A stretch of DNA of 64,000 nucleotides from Oscillospiraceae bacterium (GCA_004556975.1 SFFD01000005.1:2429-66428), one strand, 5' to 3'; positions 5,335 to 60,171 are shown, counted from the first letter of the stretch. The notes: generated from the letters alone by a model not told the origin. Numbers and translations: made by a program.

Positions 5335-5370
5335 CCCCGTGCTCATTTGAGCACGGGGTTTCTCTGTTTT
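5329..5370. terminator. Bidirectional terminator (CCCCGTGCTCA/TGAGCACGGGG hairpin)
   Basis: Stem at 5335-5358 with an A-run upstream and a T-rich run downstream. It serves the convergent minus-strand TSCPD gene and any plus-strand transcript. Confidence 0.8.
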
Positions 5371-5386
5371 GAGCACGGAGTGCTCA

Positions 5387-5647
5387 TTATTCTTTCATTT
5401 TCTTCTGCGCTTCAACAATGGCCTTTGTAAGCTGGTCCGCGCAAGAGGTTCCGCGGCCGCGGCAGTCGTTGCCCGCAAGGCGGGCGACAACCTCGTCTGC
5501 GTTCCACCCCTCAAGTATTTTCGGAATGGCGGCAAGGTTGCCGGGGCAGCCGCCGGTAAAAACAATGTTATGAATGGTGCCGTCCTCATTTAAATCAAAG
5601 GCAATTTTTGAAGAGCAGGTTCCGTGTGTTCTGTATTCGTAATGCAT
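5387..5647 (-). CDS. TSCPD-domain small protein (TIGR03905-like)
   Basis: 86-aa product MHYEYRTHGTCSS...GGCPGNLAAI...CRGRGTSCADQL. AAGGAGA lies 6 nt upstream of the ATG at 5647, so I prefer this start to the 97-aa ORF in the track. Confidence 0.8.
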   Translation of the reverse strand: MHYEYRTHGTCSSKIAFDLNEDGTIHNIVFTGGCPGNLAAIPKILEGWNADEVVARLAGNDCRGRGTSCADQLTKAIVEAQKKMKE

Positions 5648-5648
5648 T

Positions 5649-6476
5649 TCAGTTCTCCTTTTTATAAACATGTATATCAAAAGCCGCCTCTACGGCAAGC
5701 TTTTCAATGCTTTCAAGCTTTTCGGCGCCCTTTGCCGAGGTTTTCCAGTAATACGGCGTCATCTGAAAAAGCGCCGCAATGTCTTCGTGATGCTCAAGCT
5801 GCATTACATAGCGCAGGCGGCGGGCTTTTTCGTGCTCAAAGCCCTCATAGGCAACGTCCTCTTCCTTATTTTCATAAGGACGGTCATATATTGCGGCTTT
5901 AAGCTGCCAAAGATGGCGCGGCCCGGGCACGACGTAAATGTAATATCCGCCGGGCTTGAGCACGCGCAGATACTCTTCGCGGCAAAGCGGACTGAACACG
6001 TTGAGCACGAGGTCGGCGCTTTCGCAAGCCACCGGCAGTGAAAATACCGAAGCCACGGCAAATTCGATATTTTTGCTGCGCTTTGCGGCGCGGCGCACCG
6101 AAGGACGGCTTATGTCAACTCCCGCCATAACGGGTGCCGCGCCCTTTGAGCACAGATATTCATAAATTCCGGCGGTGTAATATCCTTCGCCGCAGCCGCA
6201 GTCAAGCACCGTTTCGCCGCCGCCCGGAAAAAGCGAAAAAATCTCTTCCGCAAGGGCACTGCGCAGCGGGGCATAAAATCCGCGGTTAAGAAAAGCGGTT
6301 CTTGCCGCCGCCATGGCGGCGCTGTCGCCCGGAATTTTTGAATTCATCCGGTTCGGGGGCAAAAGGTGAACGTACCCTTCCGAAGAAATATCAAAGCTGT
6401 GACCCCGCGCGCAAAAAAGGCGTTTTTCGCCGTGCTCGAGCGGGCCGCCGCATATGGGACAAATAAAAACGCTCAT
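5649..6476 (-). CDS. rlmA: 23S rRNA (guanine-N1)-methyltransferase RlmA-like
   Basis: N-terminal zinc-ribbon CPICGGPL...CARGHSFD, then EGYVHLLPPN...PGDSAAMAAARTAFL and a SAM-MTase motif VLDCGCGEGYY. It closely parallels E. coli RlmA. Confidence 0.85.
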   Translation of the reverse strand: MSVFICPICGGPLEHGEKRLFCARGHSFDISSEGYVHLLPPNRMNSKIPGDSAAMAAARTAFLNRGFYAPLRSALAEEIFSLFPGGGETVLDCGCGEGYYTAGIYEYLCSKGAAPVMAGVDISRPSVRRAAKRSKNIEFAVASVFSLPVACESADLVLNVFSPLCREEYLRVLKPGGYYIYVVPGPRHLWQLKAAIYDRPYENKEEDVAYEGFEHEKARRLRYVMQLEHHEDIAALFQMTPYYWKTSAKGAEKLESIEKLAVEAAFDIHVYKKEN

Positions 6477-6480
6477 ATTT

Positions 6481-6762
6481 TCACCCTAAAGCTCCCGTTT
6501 CCAAATACCGCCAAAGGGCAAGATGCAAAATTATGAACAGCGGAACGAGAAGCATAAATTTTAAATGTCTTGTTTTGTGACGAAACACCGTCATGGCAAA
6601 AAACGCCCCCGCTCCGCCGCCGATGAACGCCAAAAAAAGAAGCAGGCGTTCCGGCACGCGCCGGCGGCGCGCTGCGGCAAAGTGCTTGTCGGCAATAAAT
6701 GCGGCTGCGGCAATTAAATTTATCGCCGCGTAATACAGCGGCAAAAGCTTTTGCCATTCCAA
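6481..6762 (-). CDS. DUF1294 membrane protein
   Basis: 93-aa product with the pattern DKHFAAARRRRVPERLLL...GGGAGAFFAMTVFRHKTRH typical of DUF1294. Confidence 0.8.
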   Translation of the reverse strand: MEWQKLLPLYYAAINLIAAAAFIADKHFAAARRRRVPERLLLFLAFIGGGAGAFFAMTVFRHKTRHLKFMLLVPLFIILHLALWRYLETGALG

Positions 6763-6967
6763 GGCGAAAACCCCTTTTTAACAGTAATGTTCCGCAGCGC
6801 CTTGCAGGGAATTTTTCCGCCGCAGATTAAGGGCGTGACCTGCAGACCTAAAGGACGCCGTTTTATAAAAACGAATAATAGAATTTTATCACTAACCGCA
6901 AAAATCGTCAAGATTAGGGCGCGTTTTTCGTCACTTTAACAATTTAGAGAAAAAAGGCAAAATTGTG

Positions 6968-6997
6968 TTGACTTTGTGTGCTTTACTATGATATACT
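6968..6997 (+). promoter_or_regulatory. Sigma-A-type promoter of brnQ
   Basis: TTGACT, 18-nt spacer, TGaTATACT (extended -10). Confidence 0.55.
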
Positions 6998-7044
6998 GAC
7001 AAAAATTTATATTGAGAATTAAAAAATTTACGGAGGCGATTTTG

Positions 7045-8397: not shown

Positions 8398-8400
8398 CGA

Positions 8401-20084: not shown

Positions 20085-20322
20085 CGCGATTTCCGGCGCA
20101 ATGCCGAAAATTGTGCCGGCGGCTTTACAGCTTATTTTGCTTTGCGCATTGCCCGTGGCGTCTGAAAAATATGCTTTTACGGCGCCACGACCTGATTTTT
20201 TTAAGTCGGTTAGGAATATTTCGCTTATTGTTAACAAATATTACATAGATAAATTTTAAAATTGTGATATACTTACTAATCGTAGGAATATCCCTTTCTG
20301 AATTTAAGGAGGTTTTTTGAAA

Positions 20323-21999
20323 ATGAAAGCCATTAAACGAATTTCTGCGCTGCTTCTTGCGGTCGTCATGGTTGTCGCTATGGTTCCCGCAGTGAACGCC
20401 TTCGCCCTTGAGTGGGAAGAGCAGCTCTCCAAATATGACCTTGTGTTCAGTGCAGGCGCCGGCAACGGCGGCAGCGAAACATGGACGTATCTGAAAGACG
20501 AACCGGCGGATCTTCCCGACGCGGGAACCCTCGGCTTTGTTTACAGCGGATACTACTTCACCGGCTGGAAAATAAACGGCAAAATTTATCAGTCCGGCAG
20601 CCGCTTCTATCTTGACCCGAAAACCGCAAGCAACAACGGCGACCGCTACATTGTCAGCGCCGTAGCTCAGTGGCAGAAGAACGGCACGTCCTCTTCCTCC
20701 ACGTCTTCAAGCAGCAAGACCTATATTTACGGTACATATAAGCCCGGCGAAAAGGCAAAGGGCAACGAATATATCGTAAAATATGTTGCAGGCGAAGCAT
20801 TTGAGCTTGATACATGCTCCTTCACAAGAGAAGGCTATACCTTCGCCGGGTGGGAAGTTGACGGCGAAATTTTCTCTGCGGGCGTAAAAGTCAAATCAGA
20901 CACGAACTTCACCGCCACCGCCACATGGAAGTCCAACGGAATCCATATAAGCGACTATAATCCAAGCTCCTCCGCTTCCAGCTCTACAAGCAGCAAGCCC
21001 GCCTCCAGTAGCAAGCCCGCCTCCAGCAGCAAGCCCGCTTCCAGCAGCAAACCGGCAAGCAGCTCCACCGCAAGCAAGCCGCAAAGCTCAAGCTCTTCCT
21101 CAAGCGTTGCGGAATCCTCTCTTTCAAGCTCTTCGGAAGCTTCCTCTCTGCCTGAAACTCCCGTAACTCCTTCCGTACCGGAATATACCCCCGTAACCCT
21201 TTCTTACAGCATTTCAGGCGATATTCCCGTAACCGGAATTGAGTTTACCTTAAATGAGGACCTTGGCGGAAAGGTTCAGCTTGACGTTTCGGTTCTTGAC
21301 GGCTACAGTGCCGCGGACGACGTAACATCCGCCTTTATTGCAGACGGCGACGTTCTTTCCGCCTTTGATATTTCCGTACTTCTTGACGGCGCGGCATATC
21401 ACGGCTCTTCCGAGGGCGTAATCAAATACACTCTTAACGGAACCCAGGCAAACGCTTCTTCCAACTATAAAGAATATGTCGCCGCGCTTGTTCACGTCAT
21501 CGGCGCAGAGGACTTTGCCGGCAGTTCTTATTATATGAGTGAAAACGGCAAGGCATATCTTTATAATGTCGAAACAGAAAGCAAGTCAGAGGTAAACAAT
21601 ATTTCCTTTGCACAGCATGACGGAATTTACCGCCCGGTGATTGCCGACGTCAACAGCCTTTCCACCTTTGCCTATCTTGCAAAGGAAGGCACGATTGTTG
21701 AAGTAAAGCTTATGCCCGATATCAACGCCACAGAGGTTTCAATGAACGTTGCCTCGCTTTCCCCGGTAATGCTTGTTCAGCTTGAAATGGGCAAAGCGGC
21801 AGCCGCCTCTTCGGGAATTCCGGTGTGGGCGCTTATCCTTATAATTCTGCTTGCGGTTGTTATAATTGCCATTGTTGTGCTGTTCATTATATTCAGAATA
21901 AAGGGCAGCGGCGGCAAGCCGAAAACCGGCACCGTTGAAAGACGCGTGGTTCACCGCCAGAACACCAAGGTAACCGGCTTTGATGACGACGATTTCTGA
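20323..21999 (+). CDS. Secreted, membrane-anchored surface protein with two Listeria-Bacteroides-type repeats and a Ser-rich spacer
   Basis: Signal peptide MKAIKRISALLLAVVMVVAMVPAVNAFA. Repeat signatures GYYFTGWKINGKIY and GYTFAGWEVDGEIF. An (SKPASS)n plus poly-Ser linker. C-terminal TM segment IPVWALILIILLAVVIIAIVVLFIIF followed by a basic tail. Confidence 0.8.
   Translation: MKAIKRISALLLAVVMVVAMVPAVNAFALEWEEQLSKYDLVFSAGAGNGGSETWTYLKDEPADLPDAGTLGFVYSGYYFTGWKINGKIYQSGSRFYLDPKTASNNGDRYIVSAVAQWQKNGTSSSSTSSSSKTYIYGTYKPGEKAKGNEYIVKYVAGEAFELDTCSFTREGYTFAGWEVDGEIFSAGVKVKSDTNFTATATWKSNGIHISDYNPSSSASSSTSSKPASSSKPASSSKPASSSKPASSSTASKPQSSSSSSSVAESSLSSSSEASSLPETPVTPSVPEYTPVTLSYSISGDIPVTGIEFTLNEDLGGKVQLDVSVLDGYSAADDVTSAFIADGDVLSAFDISVLLDGAAYHGSSEGVIKYTLNGTQANASSNYKEYVAALVHVIGAEDFAGSSYYMSENGKAYLYNVETESKSEVNNISFAQHDGIYRPVIADVNSLSTFAYLAKEGTIVEVKLMPDINATEVSMNVASLSPVMLVQLEMGKAAAASSGIPVWALILIILLAVVIIAIVVLFIIFRIKGSGGKPKTGTVERRVVHRQNTKVTGFDDDDF
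20992..21063 (+). repeat. 18-bp tandem repeat x4 (AGCAAGCCCGCCTCCAGY, encodes SKPASS)
   Basis: Four consecutive units. The first three are nearly identical and the fourth has diverged. Confidence 0.9.
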
Positions 22000-22026
22000 T
22001 TTAAGACCGTAATAATTCATAAGAGA

Positions 22027-22058
22027 ATCCCGTGCTCATTTTGAGCACGGGATTTTTT
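22027..22058 (+). terminator. Rho-independent terminator (ATCCCGTGCTCA/TGAGCACGGGAT)
   Basis: 12-bp perfect stem, TTT loop, T5-6 tail. Confidence 0.9.
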
Positions 22059-22184
22059 ATTAGCCGGATTTTTGAGCACGCCGCTTTATTGTCTTATTAA
22101 CTTCTGTATTTTTTATTGCATTTTGACAAAAACCGTGGTATGCTGAAAAAGAACGAATATTCGATTTTGTAAGGGGAGAATATT

Positions 22185-33199: not shown

Positions 33200-33276
33200 C
33201 GCGCGTTTTTGCTTTTGTCTGTTTAGTAAATCGGTTTTGCGGGCAAAACAATTGCATAAAAAAGAGAGGAAAAAAT

Positions 33277-34380
33277 ATGAAAAGCGAAAAGGTAACCGAT
33301 ATTTTCGGCAATGAAAAGGTTGTTCACTACGACGATTACGGCAACAAGGTAGGAGAAAGCCGGGTCGAAAGAGGGCCGCTTGGGTTTGGGGAAGAGCGCG
33401 TTGTTCATTATGACGTAAACGGCGTAAAAACCGGCGAAACCCGCACGGAAAAGAACTTTTTCGGCGGCGAAAAAGCCGTTCATTACGACGACTATGGCAT
33501 AAAAACCGGCGAGAGCCGGCAGGAAAAGAATTTTTTCGGCGACGAAAAAACCGTTCACTATGACGCCTACGGCCGCAAAACCGGTCAGACCGTAAGCGAA
33601 AAGGACTTTTTCGGCAACGAAAAGCAGGTTACATACGACAGATACGGCACTCAAAAAAGAGGAGAGTATAGAGATAACACGCCGTATTACGGCGGCAGCT
33701 CCGAAGGCTCCGGCTCCGCCGGCGGTTATTCGGGCTGTTCCGGCGGGTATGTTCCCGCCGGAAGATTTACGCTTAAGGACGGAATTGCAATTGCCGTTAC
33801 GGCAGTTTTAACCCTGCTTATGCTTGCGGTTCCGTTTATTCTGCACGCCGCTTCAAAGGACAGCGGCGGCGCCGTAAGCTTTATCCGCACCGCGGTGACT
33901 GCGCTTTGCCCGGTGATTACGGTTTTAAGCATCATTATGTTCCGCGCCAAAAAATCCGATGGCGAAGCGGTTCGCCGGGGCAAGCGCCGCATGATAATTT
34001 CCACATTTTTGCTCTTTGCCGCGCAGGAGGTTATCTTTCTGCTTTACACCGCCCCTGCCGCAAACGGCGACGAATTTTCTTCCTTCCTGCTGTTTGTTTG
34101 CTGCTGGATTCCCAAGCTGATTTACTCCGTCGTATGCGGAATTTTTTCGAGAAAATGCGGCGACAGGGGCGAAACCTGCGACGGCTGCTATTTCTTTGCG
34201 GCAAAGGCTTTTGCCATAGTTGCCGCGCTTATGGAAACGGTGAATGTGATTGCCGACGGAATTTTCAGGGATTTTTTTGCCGCTGTGCTGTACCTAATCC
34301 CTGCGGCGCTGATTCTTTACGGTGTGATTCTGGCGCTTTCTAAAGGAACGGACTGGATTTACAAGAAAATTTCAAGATAA
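33277..34380 (+). CDS. Polytopic membrane protein with five N-terminal 25-aa FFGxEKxVHYDxYGxKTGE repeats (uncharacterised)
   Basis: The ATG at 33277 is preceded by AGAGAGGA. Repeats span aa 8-134, followed by a G/S/Y linker and about 6 TM segments. There is no signal peptide. Confidence 0.7.
   Translation: MKSEKVTDIFGNEKVVHYDDYGNKVGESRVERGPLGFGEERVVHYDVNGVKTGETRTEKNFFGGEKAVHYDDYGIKTGESRQEKNFFGDEKTVHYDAYGRKTGQTVSEKDFFGNEKQVTYDRYGTQKRGEYRDNTPYYGGSSEGSGSAGGYSGCSGGYVPAGRFTLKDGIAIAVTAVLTLLMLAVPFILHAASKDSGGAVSFIRTAVTALCPVITVLSIIMFRAKKSDGEAVRRGKRRMIISTFLLFAAQEVIFLLYTAPAANGDEFSSFLLFVCCWIPKLIYSVVCGIFSRKCGDRGETCDGCYFFAAKAFAIVAALMETVNVIADGIFRDFFAAVLYLIPAALILYGVILALSKGTDWIYKKISR
33298..33678 (+). repeat. 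Five tandem roughly 75-nt coding repeats
   Basis: Repeat peptides: DIFGNEKVVHYDDYGNKVGE..., GFGEERVVHYDVNGVKTGE..., FFGGEKAVHYDDYGIKTGE..., FFGDEKTVHYDAYGRKTGQ..., FFGNEKQVTYDRYGTQKRGE... Confidence 0.9.
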
Positions 34381-34394
34381 TAGATAATAAGGAA

Positions 34395-34417
34395 GGAGCC
34401 TGCCATAGGCAAGCTCC
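34395..34417 (+). repeat. Hairpin repeat copy 1 (GGAGCCTGCCATAGGCAAGCTCC)
   Basis: Nearly identical to copy 2 at 34545-34567, with one C/T difference that creates a C-A mismatch in the stem. Confidence 0.85.
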
Positions 34418-34427
34418 CCGGCTGTCG

Positions 34428-34456: not shown

Positions 34457-34544
34457 TTTCTGTGCATAGATATGTATGCTCTCGAAAAGGAAGATAGCAA
34501 CAAAAGAAACCCATCAGGGGTGTCTTTTGCTTTTGTTCAAGCTG

Positions 34545-34572
34545 GGAGCTTGCCATAGGCAAGCTCCTTTTT
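34545..34572 (+). terminator. Hairpin repeat copy 2 with T-tract (GGAGCTTGCC-ATA-GGCAAGCTCC-TTTTT)
   Basis: Perfect 10-bp stem plus T5. It is oriented for a plus-strand transcript. Confidence 0.6.
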
Positions 34573-34599
34573 GTTTGAGCACACACTATGTGCTCAAAA

Positions 34600-36123
34600 T
34601 TATTCCGAAAGTCCCTGCGGCGAAAGCTTGAGCACGCGAGTGCTTACCTCCGCAATGTATTTGCGGTCGTGAGAAACACTGATTATAGTGCCGCCAAAGC
34701 TTTTGAGCACAAAGCGGACCTCCGGTCCGGAAAGGGGAGAAAGATTGCGTGTGGGCTCGTCAAGAATAAGCACGTTGTAATCGCCGAGCGCAAACTGCGC
34801 AAAGAATATTTTCGCCTTTTGCCCGCCGGAAAGCTCCGAAATCGGGTGCTCCGTTTCCGCCCTTGTAAAGCGCATACTGCCAAGATAGGAACGCACTTTT
34901 GTGCGTTCTTCACCGCTGCCGCCGCGGCACAAAAATTCCGTAGGAGTTTTTTCCTGCGGCAGCAAATCCGCATAATTCTGCGGCATATACGCCGCGCGTA
35001 TATCTTTGCGCGGCAGCAGCTCTGCGGCAATAAGCCGCAGCAGGGTAGTTTTGCCCACGCCGTTCTTTCCCGTTATGCAAAGGTGCTCGCCGCCGTGCAC
35101 CTCAAGCTGAATATTTTCTGCGAGTACTCGGCCGCCGGCTTTAAGCACGGGCAGCTCCAGCTTGAGCACGGTCTTGCCGGGCGGCAGGGCGGCGCTTTCG
35201 CCAAAGCGAAGAAAAATTGCGTCCTCCTGCTCCGGGAATGCGGTAAGCTGTTCCTTTTCTTTTTCAAAGCGCCGCCCCATGGATTGCACCGTGTGCATCT
35301 TTTTCTTCAGCATTGCGCCGCCGTGCGGGTCGCCGCGGCTGACGGAGCTTTGGTCATGCTCAACCTTGTCGCGAATGCGGCGAAAACGTTCCATTTTTTC
35401 GTTGAAATCCCGGCGGTCGCTCTGCGCCATCTGCTCCTGGTGCTCAAAAAGCTCTGCACGGCAACGCACATATTCGCTGTATGAAAGCCGAAACGCAGCA
35501 GCCCGCGGTACGCTCTTTTTGCGGAGCTGTTCCATGTGGATTATTGCGGTGGCGGTGTTCTCAAGCAGAGTTTCATCGTGAGAAATATATAAAATTGCAA
35601 GTTTACAGCCGTTTATAAACCGCTCCAGCCACTCAAGCGTTTCTATGTCTATGTCGTTGGACGGTTCGTCAAGCAGCAGCACGTCCGGCTTCTTGCAAAG
35701 CGCCGCCAAAAGCGAAAGCTTTACCTTTTCTCCGCCGGAAAATGCGCCCATGCGCTGCTCGCTCCAGCAGCGCTCGTACTCAATTCCAAGCTCCCGGCAG
35801 AGCGCCGCGCCCTCATCATAGGGCAGGTCGAAAAAGCCCTTTTCCGTCAAAAATTCCGCAGCCGAAAGCGCTTTTTCCGCCTCCGGCAGCTCCTGGGGAA
35901 GATAGCCGAAAACCGTGCTTTCCGTGATGATTTCGCCGGAATATTCGGCGTAATCCTCCACCAGCGCCGGGTTATAAAGCAGCTTGAGCAGGGTGGATTT
36001 TCCGTTGCCCTCCTCGCCGATGAGGGCAGCCTTTTCGCCGTCGCGAAGCACGAAGGAAAAATCCTTCAGCAGCGCGCGCAAATCTTTTTTATGATAAATT
36101 GTAAGGTTTTTTATTTGAAGCAT
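34600..36123 (-). CDS. ABC-F family ATPase (two NBDs, no TM domain); possibly a ribosome-protection (ARE-like) type
   Basis: Two Walker A motifs (GEEGNGKST, GKNGVGKTT) and two signatures (FSGGEKVK, LSGGQKAK). The basic interdomain linker is RRDFNEKMERFRRIRDKVEHDQ. The ATG at 36123 lies 6 nt after AAGGAGA. The leader contains an attenuator. Confidence 0.8.
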   Translation of the reverse strand: MLQIKNLTIYHKKDLRALLKDFSFVLRDGEKAALIGEEGNGKSTLLKLLYNPALVEDYAEYSGEIITESTVFGYLPQELPEAEKALSAAEFLTEKGFFDLPYDEGAALCRELGIEYERCWSEQRMGAFSGGEKVKLSLLAALCKKPDVLLLDEPSNDIDIETLEWLERFINGCKLAILYISHDETLLENTATAIIHMEQLRKKSVPRAAAFRLSYSEYVRCRAELFEHQEQMAQSDRRDFNEKMERFRRIRDKVEHDQSSVSRGDPHGGAMLKKKMHTVQSMGRRFEKEKEQLTAFPEQEDAIFLRFGESAALPPGKTVLKLELPVLKAGGRVLAENIQLEVHGGEHLCITGKNGVGKTTLLRLIAAELLPRKDIRAAYMPQNYADLLPQEKTPTEFLCRGGSGEERTKVRSYLGSMRFTRAETEHPISELSGGQKAKIFFAQFALGDYNVLILDEPTRNLSPLSGPEVRFVLKSFGGTIISVSHDRKYIAEVSTRVLKLSPQGLSE

Positions 36124-36141
36124 GGGCATTCTCCTTTGCAT

Positions 36142-36176
36142 AAAAAATCCGCCTTCGGCAAAAATCCGAACGCGGA
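36142..36176 (-). terminator. Leader terminator (attenuator) immediately upstream of the ABC-F RBS
   Basis: Minus-strand TCCGCGTTCGG-ATTTTTG-CCGAAGGCGGA (11-bp stem, one mismatch) followed by T6. Confidence 0.7.
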
Positions 36177-36317
36177 GCATGGCAATGCGCAGCAAAATAA
36201 AAAGCGGGCGCAAAAAATGCCGCAATCCGCGTTTTTGCCGTAACCGAACAGGGGCACCTGCATTTAACAGAGCCGCCGAAGACTTAAAATAAGTTCGTTA
36301 CAAAGCAAAAAAGCAGA

Positions 36318-36679: not shown

Positions 36680-38314
<1,635 letters not shown>

Positions 38315-43277: not shown

Positions 43278-43285
43278 AAAAGGTC

Positions 43286-43321
43286 AAAAAAGCCGTGCTC
43301 AAATTTGAGCACGGCTTTTTT
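43286..43321. terminator. Bidirectional terminator (A6-GCCGTGCTCAAA/TTTGAGCACGGC-T6)
   Basis: Perfect 24-nt palindrome between the convergent glmS and argS genes. Confidence 0.9.
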
Positions 43322-43348
43322 ATGCTTATTTTAAGGCTTAAGAAAAGC

Positions 43349-45088
43349 TTACATGCTTTCGGGAACGGTGATGTTGAGCACGGTGAGCACGTTTTTGATG
43401 GTGGTCTTTGCCGCCAGGCAAAGGGCAATTCTTGCCTGCATAAGCTTTTCGTCATCACAGCGGCAGCGGCATGCGTTATAGAATTTGTGGAATGCGGAAG
43501 CAATGTCCACGGCATATTTTGTGATGTGCGCCGGGTCATAAAGTCGTGCGGATTCCTTGATTTCGCCGGGGAATGCCGCAATGCAGGAAATAAGGGCAAG
43601 CTCTTCCGGCTCTTTAAGCACTCCGGCGGGAATTTCGCCCGCAAAGGCCACGCCTTCGGCCGCAAGGCTTTTAAGAATGGAGCATATTCTTGCGTGAGCG
43701 TACTGAACATAATAAACCGGGTTCTGGCTTGACTGCTCAACGGCAAGGTCAAGGTCGAAAATAAGGTGGGTGTTCGGCTCTCTCATATTGAAGAAGAAAC
43801 GCGCGGCGTCAATCGGCACTTCCTCAAGCAGGTCGGTGAGGGTGATTGCCTTGCCGGTACGCTTGCTCATACGAACGGGCTTGCCGTCGCGCACAAGCTC
43901 CACAAGCTGCATAAGAACAACGTCAAGCTTGTTTCCGTCAAGGCCGAGGGCGTTCATAGCACCTTTAAGACGCGCCACATGGCCGTGATGATCCGCGCCC
44001 CACACGTTTATAACTCTGTCGAAGCCGCGCTTTGCGAATTTGTTGTAGTGGTAGGCAATATCTCCGGCAAAATAGGTGGGGTTGCCGTTCTGGCGGATAA
44101 GAACGTCGTCTTTAAGCTCAAGCGCCTCAATCTGCTTGTCGGTTTTACCCTCCGACTTGAGCATTTCGGTAAGCACTTCGGCGTTTTTGTACCAAAGCGC
44201 GCCGTCCTTTTCATATGTCAGACCCTTGTCGGTAAGTATCTTTACAATTTCGTCAATGCTTCCGTCGGCATAAAGACTGCTTTCACGGAACCACACGTCA
44301 TAATCTATGCGATAGGTGTGAAGGTCGCGTTCAAGCCCTTCTACGTTGGCGGGAAGGGCATAGTCGATAAGCGCCTGACGGCGTTCTTCGGAATCTGCGT
44401 TCACATATTTGTCGCCGTTTATGTCGGCGAACTCCTTTGCGCGAACCTTGATGTCCTCGCCGTGGTAGCCGTCCTCCGGGAATTCCACCGCGTCCTCGCC
44501 GAGATAAAGCTGAAGATAGCGCGCTTCAAGGGATTTTCCGAATTTTGCTATTTGGTTACCTGCGTCGTTCACATAAAATTCCCGGGTGACATCATATCCG
44601 CACCAGGAAAGCACCTCCGCAAGTCCGTCGCCGATGGCGCCGCCTCTGGCGTTGCCCATGTGCATGGGGCCGGTGGGGTTGGCGGAAACAAATTCCACCA
44701 TGACCTTTTCGCCGTGACCGCCGTCGCTCTTGCCGTAGTCGTCTCCTTCTGAAACGGCGGCATTTACCGCCTCGGCATACCAGTGCGGCGCGTAAAACAC
44801 GTTTAAAAAGCCGGGTCCGGCAACCTCTGCCCGCTCAAAATAGCTTCCCTCAAGCTCCAAATGCGCCGCAATTGCCTCGGCAATCTGGCGGGGCGATTTA
44901 TGAAAAGCGCGGGCTGAAACCATTGCCGCGTTTGAGGCAAGGTTGCCGTTTTTGCTGTCCGCCGGAACCTCGACGATAAATTCGGGCAGTTCTCCCTCGG
45001 GAAGCTCTCCCGCGGAAACGGCAGCTTCTGCTGCCCTTTTGATAAGCTCTTTGTACTGCGCTTTGGCTTCCGCCGCTAAGTCACGCAT
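43349..45088 (-). CDS. argS: Arginine--tRNA ligase
   Basis: HMGNARGGAIGD (HIGH-type) motif and a C-terminal DALR anticodon-binding domain. The ATG at 45088 overlaps the DUF1934 stop (ATGCGTGA). Confidence 0.95.
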   Translation of the reverse strand: MRDLAAEAKAQYKELIKRAAEAAVSAGELPEGELPEFIVEVPADSKNGNLASNAAMVSARAFHKSPRQIAEAIAAHLELEGSYFERAEVAGPGFLNVFYAPHWYAEAVNAAVSEGDDYGKSDGGHGEKVMVEFVSANPTGPMHMGNARGGAIGDGLAEVLSWCGYDVTREFYVNDAGNQIAKFGKSLEARYLQLYLGEDAVEFPEDGYHGEDIKVRAKEFADINGDKYVNADSEERRQALIDYALPANVEGLERDLHTYRIDYDVWFRESSLYADGSIDEIVKILTDKGLTYEKDGALWYKNAEVLTEMLKSEGKTDKQIEALELKDDVLIRQNGNPTYFAGDIAYHYNKFAKRGFDRVINVWGADHHGHVARLKGAMNALGLDGNKLDVVLMQLVELVRDGKPVRMSKRTGKAITLTDLLEEVPIDAARFFFNMREPNTHLIFDLDLAVEQSSQNPVYYVQYAHARICSILKSLAAEGVAFAGEIPAGVLKEPEELALISCIAAFPGEIKESARLYDPAHITKYAVDIASAFHKFYNACRCRCDDEKLMQARIALCLAAKTTIKNVLTVLNITVPESM

Positions 45089-45518
45089 TACTTTCACACT
45101 CCTTGACTACAATATTTACTTCCTGCTCGCTTGCAAGCATGGCGTTTATATCCATTGAATATCTGAAATTAAGCACTCCGCCGTTATCCTCGAGCCCGTT
45201 TTCGATGGAAAGCCCCTGAATTCCCATAACCCAGTCGGAAAAACCGTTGTCATAGTGGCACTGGTGGCGCTCGCCCTTTTCTATGATAAGCTGGCTTGCG
45301 CGTTTGCCGCTGCGCGTCATGGTAACGCAGTCCGTTCCCTCAATTTTAAGCAGGGTTTTCATGGTGGGGGCAGTGTCCTCTTCGTCCATTTCTTCATAAG
45401 CAAGATAGCGGGCATTGCGCTTTTTATAATAACGTCCCTTGGTCATAAGCTCAACGGTGTCGCTTTCACCGTCTATGCTTCGGGTACCTTTGATAAAAAT
45501 AACTACATCTTTTCCCAT
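45081..45518 (-). CDS. DUF1934 (YwiB-like) beta-barrel protein
   Basis: 145-aa product, translationally coupled to argS. DUF1934-argS is a conserved Firmicute gene pair. Confidence 0.8.
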   Translation of the reverse strand: MGKDVVIFIKGTRSIDGESDTVELMTKGRYYKKRNARYLAYEEMDEEDTAPTMKTLLKIEGTDCVTMTRSGKRASQLIIEKGERHQCHYDNGFSDWVMGIQGLSIENGLEDNGGVLNFRYSMDINAMLASEQEVNIVVKECESNA

Positions 45519-45539: not shown

Positions 45540-46358
45540 TTACCTTGTTGTAAGCTCCTCCGGGTCAAGGCGGGTAACATTGCAAAGCTCCTCGCCAAGA
45601 AATTCTTTGCCCAGCCTTGTAAAGCCCTCTATTTTATCGGTAACAAAAAACTTCATTTTGCCGCTTTGCCCGGATGAAAGCAAGCCGTTTTCTTCAAGAA
45701 ATTCCTTTGCGGCGACTGCGGCTTCGCTGCCCGCGTCAATAAGCATAAGCCTGTACCCGGTAAGTTTATCAATAAGATTATAAAGCAGCGGGTAATGCGT
45801 GCACCCGAGAATGAGGGTGTCTATATCCTTTCCGTCAAAGGCTGAAAGATAATCTTTTGCCACAAGGCGGGTTACTTCACAGTCTGCGCCGGAATATCCG
45901 TTTTCCACAAGCGGAACAAAAAGCGGGCATGCCTTTGCGGTAAATTCCGCATGGGGAAGCAGGTTTTTTGTCAGCTTTTCGTAAGAACGGCTTGCCACCG
46001 TTGCCGCCGTGGCAATAAGACCGATTTTTTCGTTTTTTGTTGCGGCGGCGGCGGCTTTAACCGCAGGTTTTACAACGCCCATGCAGGGAACGGAAAATCC
46101 CTTGCCCATATCTTCGCCCAGCACAGAGCTTACCGTGCCGCAGGCGACGATTATCATTTTTACATTCTGCTTTTCAAGAAAGCGCATACATTCCGCGGCA
46201 TATTTTCGGATGACCTCCGGACTTCTGCTGCCGTAAGGCACCCGTCCGGTATCACCGAAAAACACAATATTCTCCTGCGGAAGAATTCTGCGCAGTTCAC
46301 GCACGGCGGTAAGACCGCCGAGACCGGAATCAAAAACGCCGATAGCTCTTTCGTCCAT
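45540..46358 (-). CDS. murI: Glutamate racemase
   Basis: GVFDSGLGGLT, VACGT and LGCTHYP motifs. Confidence 0.95.
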   Translation of the reverse strand: MDERAIGVFDSGLGGLTAVRELRRILPQENIVFFGDTGRVPYGSRSPEVIRKYAAECMRFLEKQNVKMIIVACGTVSSVLGEDMGKGFSVPCMGVVKPAVKAAAAATKNEKIGLIATAATVASRSYEKLTKNLLPHAEFTAKACPLFVPLVENGYSGADCEVTRLVAKDYLSAFDGKDIDTLILGCTHYPLLYNLIDKLTGYRLMLIDAGSEAAVAAKEFLEENGLLSSGQSGKMKFFVTDKIEGFTRLGKEFLGEELCNVTRLDPEELTTR

Positions 46359-47431
46359 TATTCCTCCGAAAATTCCTCTATGGCAAGCTCAATAAGTCCT
46401 GAAATAAGCTCGGAATAGCTCATTCCTGCCGCCATCATAAGCTTTGGGTACATTGAAATATCAGTAAATCCGGGAAGGGTGTTCGGCTCGTTAAGAACAA
46501 CCTTGCCGGTTTCGCGTTCCATAAGAAAATCCACTCTGGTAAGACCGCGGCAACCGAGAATCTGATAGGCAAGCATGGCCATACCGCGAATTTCCTCCGC
46601 CTTTTCTTCAGAAAGGCGCGCCGGTATGTAAAGCTTGCTTTCCGCATTGAAATATTTGGCGTCATAGCTGTAAAATTCATCGGCGGGAACAATTTCTCCC
46701 GGGCCGCCCACAGAAAGTTCGCGGTTGCCGAAAACGGCGCATTCCACCTCGACGGGGTCTTTAACCGCTTCTTCAACAATAATCTTTACATCGTTCATGA
46801 ATGCAAGGGCAAAGGCGTCGCCAAGCTCCGCTTCGCTTTTTACCTTGCTTATTCCCACGGAAGAGCCTGCGTTTGCAGGCTTTACAAAAACAGGATAACC
46901 AAGTTCCGTGCTCACGGTGTGATACGCGTGCTCAAGGTCGCAGCCGCGCATAAATGTAAGCCATTTTACCTGGGGCACGCCCGCGTTTTTGAGCACGGCG
47001 TGGCAAACGTCCTTATCCATGCACAGCGCGGAAGAAAGCACCCGGCACCCCACATAGGGAATACCCGCAATCTCAAGCAGACCCTGCATGCTTCCGTCCT
47101 CGCCGTTCCTTCCGTGCAGAACCGGGAATACGGCGTCTATTCTGTGAGGGAACATGGTGGGGCCTTCTTCAACCATCATGCCGTGAACGCTTCTGTCGGG
47201 GCAGATGAACGCCCGTTTAAGATTTTTTTCGTCCTCTTCCCATTTGTTTTGGCGAACATTTTCAATGCCGCCGGAATAAAGGAACCATTTGCCGTCCTTT
47301 GTAATGCCCAAAAGCTGCGGCTCATATTTTTCTCTGTCGATATTTTCATAAACAGAAGCGACAGACATGCACGAAACCTCGTGCTCGCTTGAAACGCCGC
47401 CGAAAAGCAGCGCAATTTTCTTTTTACCCAT
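46358..47431 (-). CDS. ddl: D-alanine--D-alanine ligase
   Basis: LFGGVSSEHEVS and HGRNGEDGSMQGLLE motifs plus an ATP-grasp domain. Confidence 0.95.
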   Translation of the reverse strand: MGKKKIALLFGGVSSEHEVSCMSVASVYENIDREKYEPQLLGITKDGKWFLYSGGIENVRQNKWEEDEKNLKRAFICPDRSVHGMMVEEGPTMFPHRIDAVFPVLHGRNGEDGSMQGLLEIAGIPYVGCRVLSSALCMDKDVCHAVLKNAGVPQVKWLTFMRGCDLEHAYHTVSTELGYPVFVKPANAGSSVGISKVKSEAELGDAFALAFMNDVKIIVEEAVKDPVEVECAVFGNRELSVGGPGEIVPADEFYSYDAKYFNAESKLYIPARLSEEKAEEIRGMAMLAYQILGCRGLTRVDFLMERETGKVVLNEPNTLPGFTDISMYPKLMMAAGMSYSELISGLIELAIEEFSEE

Positions 47432-52156: not shown

Positions 52157-53410
52157 ATGGATGCCCTGCTTACCATAAACTTTTTATTAGCGGCAATATT
52201 TTTTATCTGTTATGCATATCAGTTCATATACATTCCCGTTCCGTGGTTCAAAAAACCGCATGAGCATGCGGTTGAGCACCGCCACCGCTTTGCGGTGCTT
52301 ATCTGCGCGCGAAATGAAGAACGCGTAATTGCAAAGCTTATAGAGAGCATACACCGTCAGACATACGACTGCGGAAGCATACGCGTTTTCGTAATGGCGG
52401 ACAACTGCACCGACAATACCGCAAGGGTTGCCCGCAACGCGGGCGCCGCAGTATATAAAAGAAATAACCCCTTCCTTATAGGAAAGGGCTATGCGCTGGA
52501 GGAGCTTCTTAACAACATTACCGAGGATTATCCCCGCGGATATTTTGACGGATATTTTGTTTTTGACGCAGACAATGTTCTTGACAAGAACTATATAAAA
52601 GAGATGAACCGCACCTTTTGCGACGGTTACGATATAATAACAAGCTACAGAGATTCCAAAAACTACGGCGACAACTGGATTTCGGCGGGCTATGCCCTTT
52701 GGTTTCTTAGGGAATCCAGATATCTTAATCATGCGCGTTTTCTTTTGGGCACAAGCTGCGCCGTTTCAGGAACAGGCTTTTTCTTCAGCAAAAGAATCCT
52801 TGAAAAAAACGGCGGATGGCCGTTTCACCTGCTTACCGAGGACATTGAGTTCACCGTGCACAACATAATTAACGGCGAAAAGGTCGGCTTTTGCCCAAAA
52901 GCGGTGCTTTATGATGAACAGCCGACTTCGTTCTGCCAGTCCTGCCGCCAGCGTATGCGCTGGGCAAAGGGATATATTCAGGTGTTTCGGAAATACGGAG
53001 CGGATTTGCTTAAAGGCGCGCTGCGCGGAAATTTCTCCTGCTTTGATATGGCAATGGCAATAATGCCCGCGGTGGTGCTTACCGCAGCCTGCATTCTGGT
53101 AAACTCCGTAACGGCGGCGCTTACCCTGGCTTCGGGGGGAAGCCTTGTTCCCATACTTGTTTCGGTAGGACAAAGCATACTCAATATGTATCTTACGCTT
53201 TTTGCCATAGGCGCCGTTACTACCGCTACGGAATGGAAGATGATTGCCGCCCCGACATGGAAAAAGATAATTTATACCTTCACATTTCCGCTTTTTATGT
53301 TCACCTACATACCGATTTCCTTCGCGGCAATTTTTGCCCATGTTGAATGGAAACCCATTGAGCACAGCGTAAGCGTAAGCTGCGAAGAACTCTGGCAGGA
53401 GGGCGCATGA
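52157..53410 (+). CDS. Family 2 glycosyltransferase, membrane-embedded processive synthase type
   Basis: GT-A motifs VLICARNEE, DADN and TEDIEF, the QRMRWAKG (QxxRW) motif, one N-terminal TM segment and about 4 C-terminal TM segments. Confidence 0.85.
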   Translation: MDALLTINFLLAAIFFICYAYQFIYIPVPWFKKPHEHAVEHRHRFAVLICARNEERVIAKLIESIHRQTYDCGSIRVFVMADNCTDNTARVARNAGAAVYKRNNPFLIGKGYALEELLNNITEDYPRGYFDGYFVFDADNVLDKNYIKEMNRTFCDGYDIITSYRDSKNYGDNWISAGYALWFLRESRYLNHARFLLGTSCAVSGTGFFFSKRILEKNGGWPFHLLTEDIEFTVHNIINGEKVGFCPKAVLYDEQPTSFCQSCRQRMRWAKGYIQVFRKYGADLLKGALRGNFSCFDMAMAIMPAVVLTAACILVNSVTAALTLASGGSLVPILVSVGQSILNMYLTLFAIGAVTTATEWKMIAAPTWKKIIYTFTFPLFMFTYIPISFAAIFAHVEWKPIEHSVSVSCEELWQEGA

Positions 53411-56928: not shown

Positions 56929-57372
56929 ATGAAAGTAATATTGCTTGAGGACATTAAAGGAACAGGAAAAAAGGGAGAGCTTATCAACGCTTCCGACGGA
57001 TATGCAAGAAATTATCTTTTCCCCAAAAAGCTTGCGATGGAGGCTACGCCTCAGGCTCTTAACGAGCTTAAACAGAAAGAAGCGGCAAAGGAACGCCGCC
57101 TTGCCATTGAAAAACAGGAGGCTCTTGACGCCGCGGCAAAAATAAAGGAAAAAACGGTTAAGATTTCATCTGCGGCAGGACAGAACGGAAAGCTTTTCGG
57201 TTCTGTAACGGCTACGGATGTTGCAGAGGAGATAAAGAAGCAGTTCGGACTTGAGGTTGACAGAAGAAAAGTTTCTCTTGAAAGCGAAATCAAGTCCTTC
57301 GGCACTTATAATGCAGAGGTTAAGTTCGGAAGCGGCGTTTCCGCAAAAATCTACGTGCTTGTAGCGGAATAA
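56929..57372 (+). CDS. rplI: 50S ribosomal protein L9
   Basis: [36 protein letters not shown] is the canonical L9 N-terminus. Confidence 0.97.
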
Positions 57373-57418
57373 ACGTCCGCATATAAACAAAAACGGCAAA
57401 AACATAGGAAGTGATTTT

Positions 57419-58768
57419 TTGGCAAAAGAGAATGATATGCTGCTTGGCATAGAGATGCCCTATAGCCTTGAGGCGGAGCAAAGCGTTCTTGGCGCCGTGC
57501 TTGTAGAGCCGGGCTGCCTTGCGGAGCTTGTGGAGCGTCTTCGCTCCGAAAGCTTTTATCGCCCACAGCACCGCGCCCTTTTTTCTGAAATGGTGCGTAT
57601 GTTTACCGCCGGCGAGCCGGTGGATTTTATCACCGTGCTTGAAGCCGCTAAGGAAGCAGAGATTTTTCCTTCCGAGCAGGAAGCAAAGGTATATCTTTCT
57701 CACCTTATGGAGATTGTTCCCTCCGTACGAAATCTTGCGGCCTATGTTGACATAATTCTTGATAAACAGCTTTTGCGAAGCCTTCTTGAAATTTCCGGCG
57801 AAATAATGTCGGAAGCGAGAGAAAGCGGAGCAGAAGGCAGGGTTCTTTTGGATGCTGCGGAGCAGCATATCTATGATTTGCGCCAAGGGCGCAGCGCCAC
57901 GGGGCTTGTTCCCATAAGTGACACAATTTTAACCGCTTATGACCGCATAAACAAGCTTGCCGGACCTGACAGAGAAAAATTCCTCGGAATAAAAACCGGA
58001 TACAGCGCCGTTGACAGAAAAATCGGCGGACTTAACAAGTCTGACCTTATACTTATTGCGGCCCGCCCCGGCATGGGCAAAACGAGCTTTGCCCTTAATA
58101 TTGCGGTGAATGTCGCTCTTAAAAAGCGCAGGGTCGCAATATTTTCCCTTGAAATGAGCAGTGAACAGATAACCTCAAGAATTCTTTCCTGTGAAGCTTT
58201 GGTTGAAAGCAACCGTCTGCGCTCCGGCTCGCTTGAGGAGGCGGACTGGGTAAAGCTTGTGCAGACCGCCCAGGTTTTAAGCGGCGCGCAGATATTCATA
58301 GACGATACGGCGGGCATCACGGTTTCTGAAATGAAGGCAAAGCTTCGCCGCCTGCGTGATGTCGACCTTGTAATCATTGACTATTTACAGCTTATGTCTT
58401 CCGGCAAACGCACGGATAACCGTGTGCAGGAGGTTTCTGAAATGACCCGTAACCTTAAGCTTATGGCAAGGGAGCTTGACGTTCCCGTGGTCGTTCTTTC
58501 CCAGCTTTCCCGCGCGACCGAAAGCCGCACCGGCCACCGCCCGATGCTTTCGGACCTTCGTGAATCCGGCTCCATTGAGCAGGATGCCGACATTGTAATG
58601 TTCCTTTACCGCGAATCGTATTATCAGCTTCAGGAGGGTGCTCCCGCGCCGGAACAGGACACCGTTGAGTGCATTGTTTCCAAGAACCGCCACGGAGAAA
58701 CCGGCACGGCCGTGCTTCTTTGGGACGGATGCCACACCAAGTTCTATACCATTGAGGAAGACAGATGA
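57419..58768 (+). CDS. dnaB: Replicative DNA helicase (DnaB family; DnaC in B. subtilis nomenclature)
   Basis: PYSLEAEQSVLGAVL, ARPGMGKTSFALN (Walker A), IIDYLQLM and SQLSR motifs. The TTG start is preceded by AGGAAG. Confidence 0.93.
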   Translation: MAKENDMLLGIEMPYSLEAEQSVLGAVLVEPGCLAELVERLRSESFYRPQHRALFSEMVRMFTAGEPVDFITVLEAAKEAEIFPSEQEAKVYLSHLMEIVPSVRNLAAYVDIILDKQLLRSLLEISGEIMSEARESGAEGRVLLDAAEQHIYDLRQGRSATGLVPISDTILTAYDRINKLAGPDREKFLGIKTGYSAVDRKIGGLNKSDLILIAARPGMGKTSFALNIAVNVALKKRRVAIFSLEMSSEQITSRILSCEALVESNRLRSGSLEEADWVKLVQTAQVLSGAQIFIDDTAGITVSEMKAKLRRLRDVDLVIIDYLQLMSSGKRTDNRVQEVSEMTRNLKLMARELDVPVVVLSQLSRATESRTGHRPMLSDLRESGSIEQDADIVMFLYRESYYQLQEGAPAPEQDTVECIVSKNRHGETGTAVLLWDGCHTKFYTIEEDR

Positions 58769-60171
58769 GCACGGAAGTAAACGGCGCAGGCACGCAAAGG
58801 TCTTTGCTTTTGCTTGAATTGCGGGCAAAGGAATTTATCGAAAAGGAGCATATGCTCAAAAAAGGAGATTTTGTGGTTGCCGCCGTTTCCGGCGGGTGCG
58901 ATTCCACGGCGCTTTTGCATATTCTCTGCGCTTTGAGCACCGAGCTTGATCTTCATATTATGTGCGCCCATGTGAACCACAACTTAAGGGGAAAAGAAAG
59001 CGACGGGGACGAAAGCTTTGTGCTCAAAATGTGCAAAAATCTCGGCGTGCCGTGCAGGGTTCTTTCTGCACCGGTTGCGGAATATGCCGCCGAGCACCGC
59101 TTGAGCACAGAAGAAGCCGGAAGGCAGATTCGCTATGATTTTTTTGAGCACTGCGCCGAAAAATTCGGTGAAAACGCAAAAATAGCTACCGCGCACAGTC
59201 TTTCGGACTGTGCCGAAACTTTTATTTTCAACGCCGCAAGGGGTACCGGTCTTTCGGGACTTTGCGGAATTCCCAAAAAGCGAAAAAATATAATCCGACC
59301 GCTTATAGGCTTTACAAGGGCGGAACTTGAGGAGTATTGCGCGCAAAAGGGCGTCTGCTTTGTGACCGACAGCACAAATCTGACCGATGAATACGCCCGC
59401 AACAAAATCCGCCACAATGTAATTCCTACTCTGAGGGAGATAAATCCCGCTTTTGAGCGTTCGCTTTTTCATATAGAAAATTTACTTGCGGAAGCGCGCG
59501 ACTTTATAAGCGATTCCGCAAAAACCGCCCTTGCCCAAGCAAGACTCGGCGGGGGATACAGCGCCAAGGCGCTTGCGGCGCTTCCCAATGCGGTGAAAAG
59601 CGCTGCCGCCGTGCTGATTTTTGAAGAATTCGGCTTTGCCGCAGATTATAACCGTGTGCGAAGCCTTTGCGAAGGCTTTTCGGGCGGCGATTTTCAGTGG
59701 GAGCTTGCAAAAAATGAATATCTTTGCAAAAAAGACGGTTCAATTTTCAAAAGAGTAAAGCTGCCGGATGCGGAAAAAATGAATGAAACACCTTTTGCGG
59801 AGGGCAGAATTACACTTTCAAACGGCGAAAATCTTTTAATAGAGCTTTTGCCGCATGAATTATTCAAAAATTCATATAAATTTAAAAAATATTCATTAAA
59901 AGACGCCTTTGATTATGATACAATACAAAACGTGGCGTTTTTTCGTTCCCGAAAAGAGGGCGACAAAGCCGACATTCACGGCGGAACAAAAACCCTTAAA
60001 AAGCTTTTTAATGAAGCAAAAATTCCACCGCATCTAAGAGACGGCGTTGCTGTTTTGGCGGATGACGCCGGCGTTCTTTGGATAGAAGGCCTTGGAGCGG
60101 CGCGCCGCGGCCGCATTACAGAAAAAACAAAAACCGTTGCGGTGGTAAAAAGGGAATCTTTACAGACATAA
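58765..60171 (+). CDS. tilS: tRNA(Ile)-lysidine synthetase
   Basis: PP-loop AAVSGGCDSTALL and a C-terminal TilS domain. ATGA overlap with dnaB. Confidence 0.92.
   Translation: MSTEVNGAGTQRSLLLLELRAKEFIEKEHMLKKGDFVVAAVSGGCDSTALLHILCALSTELDLHIMCAHVNHNLRGKESDGDESFVLKMCKNLGVPCRVLSAPVAEYAAEHRLSTEEAGRQIRYDFFEHCAEKFGENAKIATAHSLSDCAETFIFNAARGTGLSGLCGIPKKRKNIIRPLIGFTRAELEEYCAQKGVCFVTDSTNLTDEYARNKIRHNVIPTLREINPAFERSLFHIENLLAEARDFISDSAKTALAQARLGGGYSAKALAALPNAVKSAAAVLIFEEFGFAADYNRVRSLCEGFSGGDFQWELAKNEYLCKKDGSIFKRVKLPDAEKMNETPFAEGRITLSNGENLLIELLPHELFKNSYKFKKYSLKDAFDYDTIQNVAFFRSRKEGDKADIHGGTKTLKKLFNEAKIPPHLRDGVAVLADDAGVLWIEGLGAARRGRITEKTKTVAVVKRESLQT

Follow-up and report, generated by a model that had tools for sequence, protein, structure and literature searches.

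Introduction

Uptake sequences are the textbook case in which the machinery for DNA import has shaped the genome that encodes it. DNA uptake sequences (DUS) and uptake signal sequences (USS) have been described only in the Neisseriaceae and Pasteurellaceae (PMC1852404, PMC2346458, PMC13020248, bioRxiv 10.1101/2025.10.24.684340). Surveys published in 2025 and 2026 still name no other family. In the known families, 17-55% of terminators contain inverted pairs of uptake sequences. Here we describe a short DNA word, TTGAGCAC, that is strongly over-represented in a stretch of ordinary housekeeping chromosome from an Oscillospiraceae bacterium (GCA_004556975.1, SFFD01000005.1:2429-66428). We refer to the whole stretch of 64 kb as the window, and positions are counted from its first letter. 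We read the word as a lineage-specific self-DNA tag that is most likely maintained in the way that DUS and USS are, and we give this reading a probability of roughly 0.4.

The DUS of the Neisseriaceae (GCCGTCTGAA and its dialects, recognised by the minor pilin ComP) is a 10-12-nt word that occurs about once per kb (PMC1852404, PMC2346458, PMC3630211, bioRxiv 10.1101/2025.10.24.684340). Like the DUS, which is without replication polarity and whose inverted pairs make up a large share of Rho-independent terminators, the Oscillospiraceae word is found in both orientations, within genes and between them, in terminator pairs, in restricted reading frames, and in related genomes. Unlike the DUS, it has an unrelated sequence, it clusters much more strongly, some relatives carry only terminator copies, and its host is a monoderm, spore-forming anaerobe without an outer membrane or secretin. 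The USS of the Pasteurellaceae (AAGTGCGGT) is similar in having a short core with weaker flank preferences (here T-rich on the 5' side and G on the 3' side), a comparable density, and genic copies that shape tripeptide usage and occupy tolerant positions. The USS is present in 17-29% of terminators, and the word in about 25% of the strong terminators of the window. The two differ in phylum and envelope, and in that the USS is reported to be distributed roughly randomly or evenly and has an AT-rich extended flank, whereas the word is clustered and has no such flank.

Several other classes of repeated word also invite comparison. Chi sequences (E. coli GCTGGTGG, B. subtilis AGCGG and L. lactis GCGCGTG, read by RecBCD or AddAB) are likewise short, over-represented and scarce in foreign DNA, but they are strongly co-oriented with replication, G-rich, and not arranged in inverted pairs or terminators. 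The cyanobacterial highly iterated palindrome HIP1 (GCGATCGC) is also an octamer in one to two orders of magnitude of excess, present in all contexts and conserved at orthologous sites. It is, however, a perfect palindrome linked to a methyltransferase, whereas the word is asymmetric (TTGAGCAC differs from GTGCTCAA) and forms hairpins only as inverted pairs. Repetitive extragenic palindromes and the mosaic elements built from them (REP/BIME, associated with RAYT transposases) resemble the word in placing hairpins at the ends of operons. In REP, the whole 20-40-nt palindrome is conserved and never genic; the word has an 8-10-nt core and is mostly genic. Finally, the FtsK-orienting polar sequences and SpoIIIE recognition sequences (KOPS/SRS) are over-represented octamers too, but are more than 80% polar, with a polarity that switches at the origin and at dif, which is incompatible with head-to-head pairs.

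Over-representation of the word in the window

The base composition of the window is about 25% for each base. TTGAGCAC occurs 22 times on the plus strand and 11 times on the minus strand (as GTGCTCAA). For both strands together, Markov models of orders 0-3 predict 1.5-2.0 copies, and a model of order 4 predicts 6.5. Orders 5 and 6 raise the expectation to 17 and 30, but at 64 kb such models learn the sub-words of the motif and so absorb the motif itself, and they were dropped as uninformative. The excess is about 17-fold (z ~22); TTGAGCAC ranks first among the 8-mers of the window, and its one-base shift, CGTGCTCA, ranks second. The density is about one copy per 2 kb (~0.5 per kb), which extrapolates to some 1,000-1,500 copies in the whole genome. 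A preliminary description of this DNA, made from the sequence alone, had placed all 22 plus-strand copies exactly. It had also counted 11 complement copies, as we do, but seven of its coordinates were off by 1-12 bases; these copies start at 5832, 14739, 15694, 28476, 29553, 34590, 35440, 36992, 43295, 46928, and 59020.

When the 33 copies are aligned, T is found at position -1 in 21/33, G at +1 in 18/33, and G at +2 in 16/33, and the information content beyond about 10 nt is close to zero. The first two of these counts are identical to those given previously. The word is about 9-10 nt long, with the consensus 5'-(T)TTGAGCACG(G)-3'. Conservation ends at about 10 nt and the outer stems of the hairpins vary, which rules out a dispersed long repeat, a miniature inverted-repeat transposable element or a REP. 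The GAGCAC core is present in 30 and 32 copies on the two strands, rather than the 27 or so per strand reported before, and the earlier figure of 22 plus-strand cores preceded by TT stands (22/30). One-mismatch variants of the word are mildly enriched (67 versus 38 expected).

Pressure on the DNA word inside genes

Twenty-five of the 33 copies (76%) are genic. The remaining 8 fall within 5.3 kb of intergenic DNA, a density 3.5-fold above the genic one. In the sense direction, 14 of the genic copies read GTGCTCAA (13 as GTG CTC AAx) and 11 read TTGAGCAC (9 as xTT GAG CAC), which agrees with the approximate split of 11 sense and 14 antisense copies in the preliminary description.

When synonymous codons were shuffled within open reading frames (ORFs), 3.6 genic copies were expected, compared with 25 observed, and the maximum in 1000 shuffles was 10. 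This null is weak, since a control word, GGAGCTTG, also exceeds the shuffle five-fold; a contingency test that takes codon-pair bias into account was used in its place. GGAGCTTG itself is a codon-level word: it occurs 23 times in the window and, within ORFs, lies 17:3 on the sense strand, where it reads Glu-Leu (GAG CTT). In the contingency test, V-L is encoded by GTG-CTC in 13 of 26 cases before a codon starting with AA, compared with 11 of 144 before any other codon (Fisher p = 1e-6), in a window where Leu is encoded by CTT 65% of the time and by CTC 10% of the time. Similarly, E-H is encoded by GAG-CAC in 9/12 cases after an xTT codon and in 10/27 otherwise (p = 0.04). The preliminary description had correctly found 13 VL[KN] tripeptides that use exactly GTGCTCAA, and CTT as the commonest Leu codon; it had checked 22 such tripeptides, and the window has 26. 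The excess of the word survives the codon-pair-aware check that it had named, and this decisive test shows that the excess of TTGAGCAC is not a codon artefact.

The encoded tripeptides are themselves more frequent than expected, with 18 VLK versus 9.0 and 5 FEH versus 1.1. In comparisons with word-free distant orthologues, we found that most of the word is already provided by conserved V/I-L or L/V/F-E pairs, and that a variable third residue has become K or H. Examples are VL[D/E] to VLK, LE[D/S/R] to LEH, and VYE to VLK, which include charge reversals, and ALCREL corresponds to KAVLKL. Altogether, the codon-pair-aware test, the excess of VLK and FEH, and the changes relative to orthologues strongly support the earlier proposal that selection or drive acts on the DNA word, and not on the protein sequence.

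Inverted pairs and terminators

Five inverted pairs of the word in the window fold into hairpins of -14 to -34 kcal/mol (z -4.5 to -7.9). U-rich tails follow four of the five on one or both strands; three are located between convergent genes, and one follows a single gene. Of the 12 strongest terminators here, about 3 (~25%) are motif hairpins. These inverted-pair terminators, which are absent from the preliminary description, are the strongest argument for placing the word in the DUS/USS class.

The most stable is a bidirectional terminator at 5332-5361, between the convergent ORFs 4802-5350 (+) and 5387-5647 (-), which has a folding energy of -34 kcal/mol (z -5.2/-6.1). Its arms, GTGCTCA at 5339-5345 and TTGAGCAC at 5347-5354, are extended by a cccc/gggg outer stem into a 13-bp stem with a T-tail on both strands. 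The TGA stop of ORF 4802-5350 (5348-5350) is the TGA within the motif arm (T-TGA-GCAC). A second hairpin (5369-5386) begins 8 nt after the first and consists of TTGAGCAC (5369-5376), gga, and GTGCTCA (5380-5386). Downstream of ORF 20317-21999, a plus-strand terminator at 22022-22058 has a 17-bp stem (-27.7 kcal/mol, z -5.4) built from GTGCTCA (22032-22038), TTGAGCAC (22041-22048), and an atccc/gggat outer stem, followed by the tail TTTTTTATT. An extra single copy, or "third copy," is found at 22072-22079 (+), 14 nt downstream of this stem. Between the convergent glmS and argS genes, the bidirectional terminator at 43285-43322 reads AAAAAAGCC-GTGCTCAA-AT-TTGAGCAC-GGCTTTTTT, with copies at 43295 (-) and 43305 (+), and forms a 16-17-bp stem on both strands (-26.9/-26.4 kcal/mol, z -7.9/-7.4). 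An inverted pair downstream of the ABC-F gene, TTGAGCAC-acactat-GTGCTCAA (34575-34597), has no T-tract and is less stable (-13.9 kcal/mol, z -4.6); both of its arms are kept in five related contigs.

A search for the hairpin CGTGCTCA-N0-4-TTGAGCACG across 185,579 species genomes gave at least 118 loci. Among the matches listed, 55 come from more than 30 uncultured gut metagenome-assembled genomes (MAGs) of the Oscillospiraceae or Ruminococcaceae, and the others are single, scattered over unrelated phyla, and about as numerous as expected by chance. The hairpins of the related MAGs have at least two extra complementary stem pairs in 43/55 cases, compared with 8/63 of the chance matches elsewhere, and are flanked by A- or T-tracts in 36/55 cases, compared with 5/63 of the chance matches in other phyla (p = 2e-11). 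Their outer stem pairs differ between loci yet remain complementary. Loops are 1-7 nt long, and a third copy is found 10-15 nt outside the stem in ~14/57, or about a quarter, of the related-MAG hairpins.

No Rfam family reached its gathering score on either strand of the 64 kb. The operator of HrcA, the controlling inverted repeat of chaperone expression (CIRCE; TTAGCACTC-N9-GAGTGCTAA), was considered and rejected: the likeness is superficial, since half-site and spacing are different, and neither the number of copies nor their position inside genes suits such an operator. About 1.4 kb past the right end of the window (L174 15140-15210), four copies lie within 70 bp, three of them direct and one inverted. 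They lie not at a terminator but in the promoter region from which a 2-thiouracil desulfurase-like gene and ispD diverge.

Orientation of the copies

The 22:11 orientation of copies in the window had suggested a 2:1 strand skew of the kind that fits Chi. Independent loci do not bear this out: where one gene strand is clearly in the majority, the ratio against that strand is 12:14, a comparison of limited power, and it is 32:45 sense to antisense relative to the gene in which each copy lies. Within 8-kb pieces, the copies show no significant agreement in orientation (p = 0.14). Genuine uptake sequences may show orientation ratios of about 2:1 in genes (PMC2346458). Head-to-head pairs account for 21% of copies, inverted pairs are 1-7 nt apart, and the orientations are interleaved within clusters.

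Because of the head-to-head pairs and the near-balanced orientation, an orienting word of the KOPS/SRS type is excluded. Of the three classes put forward in the preliminary description, a DUS/USS-like word is the best fit, Chi is less likely, and the chromosome-orienting word drops out. Positional organisation, for which the preliminary description had advised looking, is present both in the terminator hairpins and in the clustering.

If the word were a Chi-like hotspot, AddAB or RecBCD would read 5'-TTGAGCAC(G)-3' on the 3'-ended strand and pass from degradation to RecA loading, thereby protecting self DNA. The length of the word, its density of about one per 2 kb, and its core-genome excess all resemble Chi, as do the 27:14 ratio over 80 kb and the phages without the word. 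A 75% skew would nevertheless give about 17/26 where 12:14 was seen, the local concordance is not significant, and neither the 21% of head-to-head pairs nor the 3.5-fold intergenic excess is a feature of Chi. In addition, known Chi sequences are G-rich, and the word is not. We consider it quite improbable that the word is a Chi site.

Distribution beyond the window

The excess is not confined to the window or to paralogous repeats, a possibility that the preliminary description had allowed for. In 16 kb of fresh flanks from the same genome, the word occurs at 0.44-0.59 copies per kb, again in tight groups. The proteins of the window are matched exactly in MAG GCA_004561885.1 and in more than 1000 metagenome assembly blocks. 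In the Oscillospiraceae loci recovered by the hairpin scan, the flanks contain 83 copies after masking of the seed, versus 10.8 expected (7.7-fold), and individual MAGs reach ~19-27 times expectation; the corresponding flanks from other phyla contain 14 versus 10.8 expected (1.3-fold; 471 kb). The top 8-mers of the pooled MAGs, CGTGCTCA, GTGCTCAA, and CCGTGCTC, are all windows of one motif. Flank preferences of single MAGs are too thinly sampled to tell dialects apart.

The ABC-F gene offers an independent view of this distribution. Five metagenome contigs whose ABC-F orthologues share 84-92% protein identity carry the word at 25-94 times expectation, and ABC-F relatives at 61% identity or less (~0.5 Mb) have essentially no word and no substitute over-represented word. 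Altogether, the word is common to more than 20 Oscillospiraceae MAG species; it is clade-restricted and previously undescribed, in a widespread gut lineage. In the literature, it turned up only inside primers, and we came across no account of uptake sequences from Gram-positive bacteria. In two of the distant ABC-F relatives (L129/L140, GC 58%), a different word, AGCGGGAG, occurs 10 times in 21 kb versus 1 expected. In L129 it is strand-polar (9:1), encodes mostly R-E codons, and contains the B. subtilis Chi pentamer AGCGG; either codon usage or a polar word of that genus may lie behind it.

The hairpin pattern yielded 32 hits across 2.9 million viral contigs, almost all of them within genes of GC-rich phages, and the density of the word in their flanks is at background. 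Two viral loci (L193 and L206, GC 0.41), each with two extra copies, are the sole viral matches with a terminator-like hairpin (…CGTGCTCAGATTTTGAGCACGgttttt…) and may represent phages or prophages of a motif-bearing host.

Conservation, gain, and loss of sites

One related Oscillospiraceae MAG is 80% identical to the window in the aro region. In two loci from relatives that are ~80% identical, 5/6 (L125) and 5/7 (L149) sites are intact, whereas 22-26% of all 8-mers are; the comparison of orthologues in close relatives called for in the preliminary description thus gives a background of 0.22-0.26, well below the fraction of sites kept. Sites that are not shared differ by one or two substitutions (TTGAGCAT/TTGAGCAC, GTGCTTAA/GTGCTCAA, and GTGCTCAG/GTGCTCAA). 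Three sites are polymorphic within the species, among strains that are 98.4-99.2% identical: 5347 (TTGAGCAC/TCGAGCAC), 5832 (GTGCTCAA/ATGCTCAA), and 6432, which reads GTGCTCGA in the window and GTGCTCAA in three other strains. These alignments indicate that sites are conserved in orthologues and are gained and lost by point mutation.

Alternatively, the word could be a functionless by-product of biased mutation or repair, such as very short patch (VSP) repair coupled to a methyltransferase, as has been proposed for HIP1. In favour of this, one-mismatch neighbours are in excess and have become the perfect word in one lineage or another, and the excess is independent of reading frame. The word is non-palindromic, however, which makes a typical methylation site unlikely; the conservation of sites above background argues for constraint; and the construction of terminators would be left unexplained. 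A 17-fold effect accompanied by non-conservative residue changes far exceeds the known effects of VSP repair, and we regard a by-product of this kind as very improbable.

An uptake-sequence-like role and its alternatives

By analogy with DUS and USS, we infer that DNA uptake is the selective agent behind the self-DNA tag. A component of the natural transformation machinery would bind double-stranded DNA bearing the word, whichever way the word points; candidates for this role in a monoderm are a minor pilin of the competence pseudopilus or a ComEA-like receptor. Word-bearing DNA of the same species would then be preferentially taken up and recombined, and the resulting uptake bias would act as a molecular drive that fixes new copies where the protein tolerates them and preserves old ones. 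Intergenic copies would accumulate fastest, and inverted pairs among them could be co-opted as the stems of Rho-independent terminators. Replication-strand polarity aside, the word matches the genomic hallmarks of DUS and USS that can be tested, namely density, orientations, frames, intergenic excess, terminators, sharing within a clade, and scarcity in mobile DNA.

It is possible, and we advance this tentatively, that the word is the first DUS system outside the Proteobacteria, through which transformable, spore-forming Oscillospiraceae of the gut select self DNA via (T)TTGAGCACG. The receptor, of the competence pseudopilus or ComEA type, would in that case have evolved independently of ComP. 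Lineages that carry only the hairpins could represent an earlier stage, or have a receptor that requires a palindrome. If true, this would mean that self-recognising natural transformation exists in a major, genetically intractable part of the animal and human gut microbiota, that adding the word to donor DNA could serve as a simple handle for genetic tools, that molecular drive and selection could be compared in a third, phylogenetically remote test case, and that the word marks chromosomal versus mobile DNA in these MAGs. Even without uptake, a 10-nt word that overrides codon and residue choice and supplies terminator stems demands explanation.

Several observations weigh against an uptake-sequence-like role. 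Sequence-specific uptake is not known from Gram-positive bacteria, and the classic uptake systems of B. subtilis and S. pneumoniae take up DNA without regard to sequence. No prepilin-type genes (G-F-T-L-x-E) were found in ~0.5 Mb of motif-bearing loci, which is a tiny sample. The 27:14 ratio over 80 kb of contiguous sequence (p ~0.06) leaves a mild polarity possible. In the ABC-F proteins, the word-encoded columns are not less conserved overall (0.544 vs 0.550, p = 0.43). The notion that copies sit in poorly conserved protein segments is therefore unsupported in ABC-F, and only the third residue of the encoded tripeptides is variable. Clustering is also far above what is reported for the USS, with 16/32 gaps shorter than 150 bp versus 2.4 expected. 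Finally, some related lineages appear to use only the hairpin. In SIG518 (L014, L051, L060, L094, and L097), RGIG1663, and RGIG3070, the exact CGTGCTCA/TGAGCACG core is found in many independent terminators, and the genic density of the 7-mer core is at chance (0.09-0.14 per kb), which pure uptake drive does not predict.

These hairpin-only lineages suggest either that a hairpin-centred function is still in play or that the receptor there needs a palindrome. In the former case, the unit would be an RNA or single-stranded DNA hairpin, CGTGCTCA-loop-TGAGCACG, recognised at the ends of operons by a sequence-specific factor, such as an RNA-binding protein that acts in termination or stabilises 3' ends, or a DNA enzyme that binds hairpins, and the single genic copies would be secondary spill-over in some lineages. 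Such a unit would account for lineages that keep an exact 8-bp core while their outer stems differ and their genic density stays at chance, and it fits the very stable hairpins with T-tails and the third copy that recurs 10-15 nt from many of them. It does not account for the window species, in which 79% of copies are single, 76% are genic, the genic orientations are 11:14, and copies come at the cost of rare codons and residues; the data already point to purifying selection on single genic copies. Loops that vary from 1 to 7 nt, intergenic groups in a divergent promoter region, and the lack of an Rfam match also speak against it. We think a hairpin-centred element unlikely.

The clustering brings a different alternative into consideration. 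TTGAGCACG could be bound as a monomer, and best when clustered, by an abundant DNA-binding protein, whether a nucleoid-associated protein, a chromosome-organising protein, or a self-marker for defence. Clusters with spacings of 40-150 bp separated by long empty stretches, independence of orientation, sites kept across species, and phages without the word are all consistent with such a protein. On the other hand, arithmetic on the listed gaps gave no helical phasing of the spacings within clusters, and the use of the word in terminator stems would not be predicted. We know of no parS, Noc-binding (NBS), SlmA-binding (SBS), matS or ram motif that reaches about one copy per 2 kb or forces a coding cost. 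We consider it unlikely that the word is a binding site of this kind.

Copy sites and other features of the window

The genes of the window include those for sugar ABC permeases, rlmA, brnQ, the aro operon, capsule-type genes, ABC-F, pyrG, purB, purA, glmS, argS, ddl, gdpP, rplI, dnaB, tilS, hpt, and ftsH, and SpoIIID was called in the flank loci. Copies of the word are distributed unevenly among them: 45/56 ORFs have no copy and four ORFs have three or more. The gene names and patchiness given in the preliminary description hold up, with 4 copies in rlmA, 3 in aroB, 4 in ABC-F and 4 in tilS, and within the window there are none in ftsH, dnaB, gdpP, glmS, purA, or purB. A regular spacing of clusters at 3.5-8.4 kb (coefficient of variation 0.24) was considered and rejected, as it depends on the threshold and the pattern is broken by an 11.7-kb gap in the left flank.

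The rlmA cluster (gene 5649-6476, -) has copies at 5832 (-), 5956 (+), 6001 (+), and 6146 (+). Those in aroB are at 14497 (+), 14632 (+), and 14739 (-), and a copy at 15694 (-) is in pheA/chorismate mutase. An uncharacterised 511-aa ORF contains copies at 28476 (-) and 29553 (-), and a ParA/MinD-type P-loop ORF has one at its start (29985, +). The single copy in pyrG, which encodes CTP synthase, is at 36992-36999 (-). At the 3' end of argS (gene 43349-45097, -), a copy at 43374-43381 (+) is immediately followed by a degenerate direct repeat, ggTGAGCACg. Two copies each are found in ddl (gene 46358-47431, -), at 46928 (-) and 46989 (+), and in a family-2 glycosyltransferase gene (52157-53410), at 52272 (+) and 53358 (+). 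In tilS (58765-60171), the copies at 58933 (+), 59020 (-), 59101 (+), and 59144 (+) all lie in the 5' quarter of the gene.

The ABC-F gene (34600-36225, -) has copies at 34628 (+), 34703 (+), 35162 (+), and 35440 (-), which encode VLK, VLK, VLK, and FEH. The spacer downstream of it also contains two copies (34393-34419 and 34544-34568) of a different, strong palindrome, GGGAGCTTGCC-ATA-GGCAAGCTCC, whose half-word is GGAGCTTG. An uncharacterised 428-aa ORF (33094-34380) without a Pfam match contains, at 33403-33623, a 75-bp tandem repeat (2.9 copies, 80% matches, 25-aa units), and in related contigs the ORF is internally repetitive in the same way.

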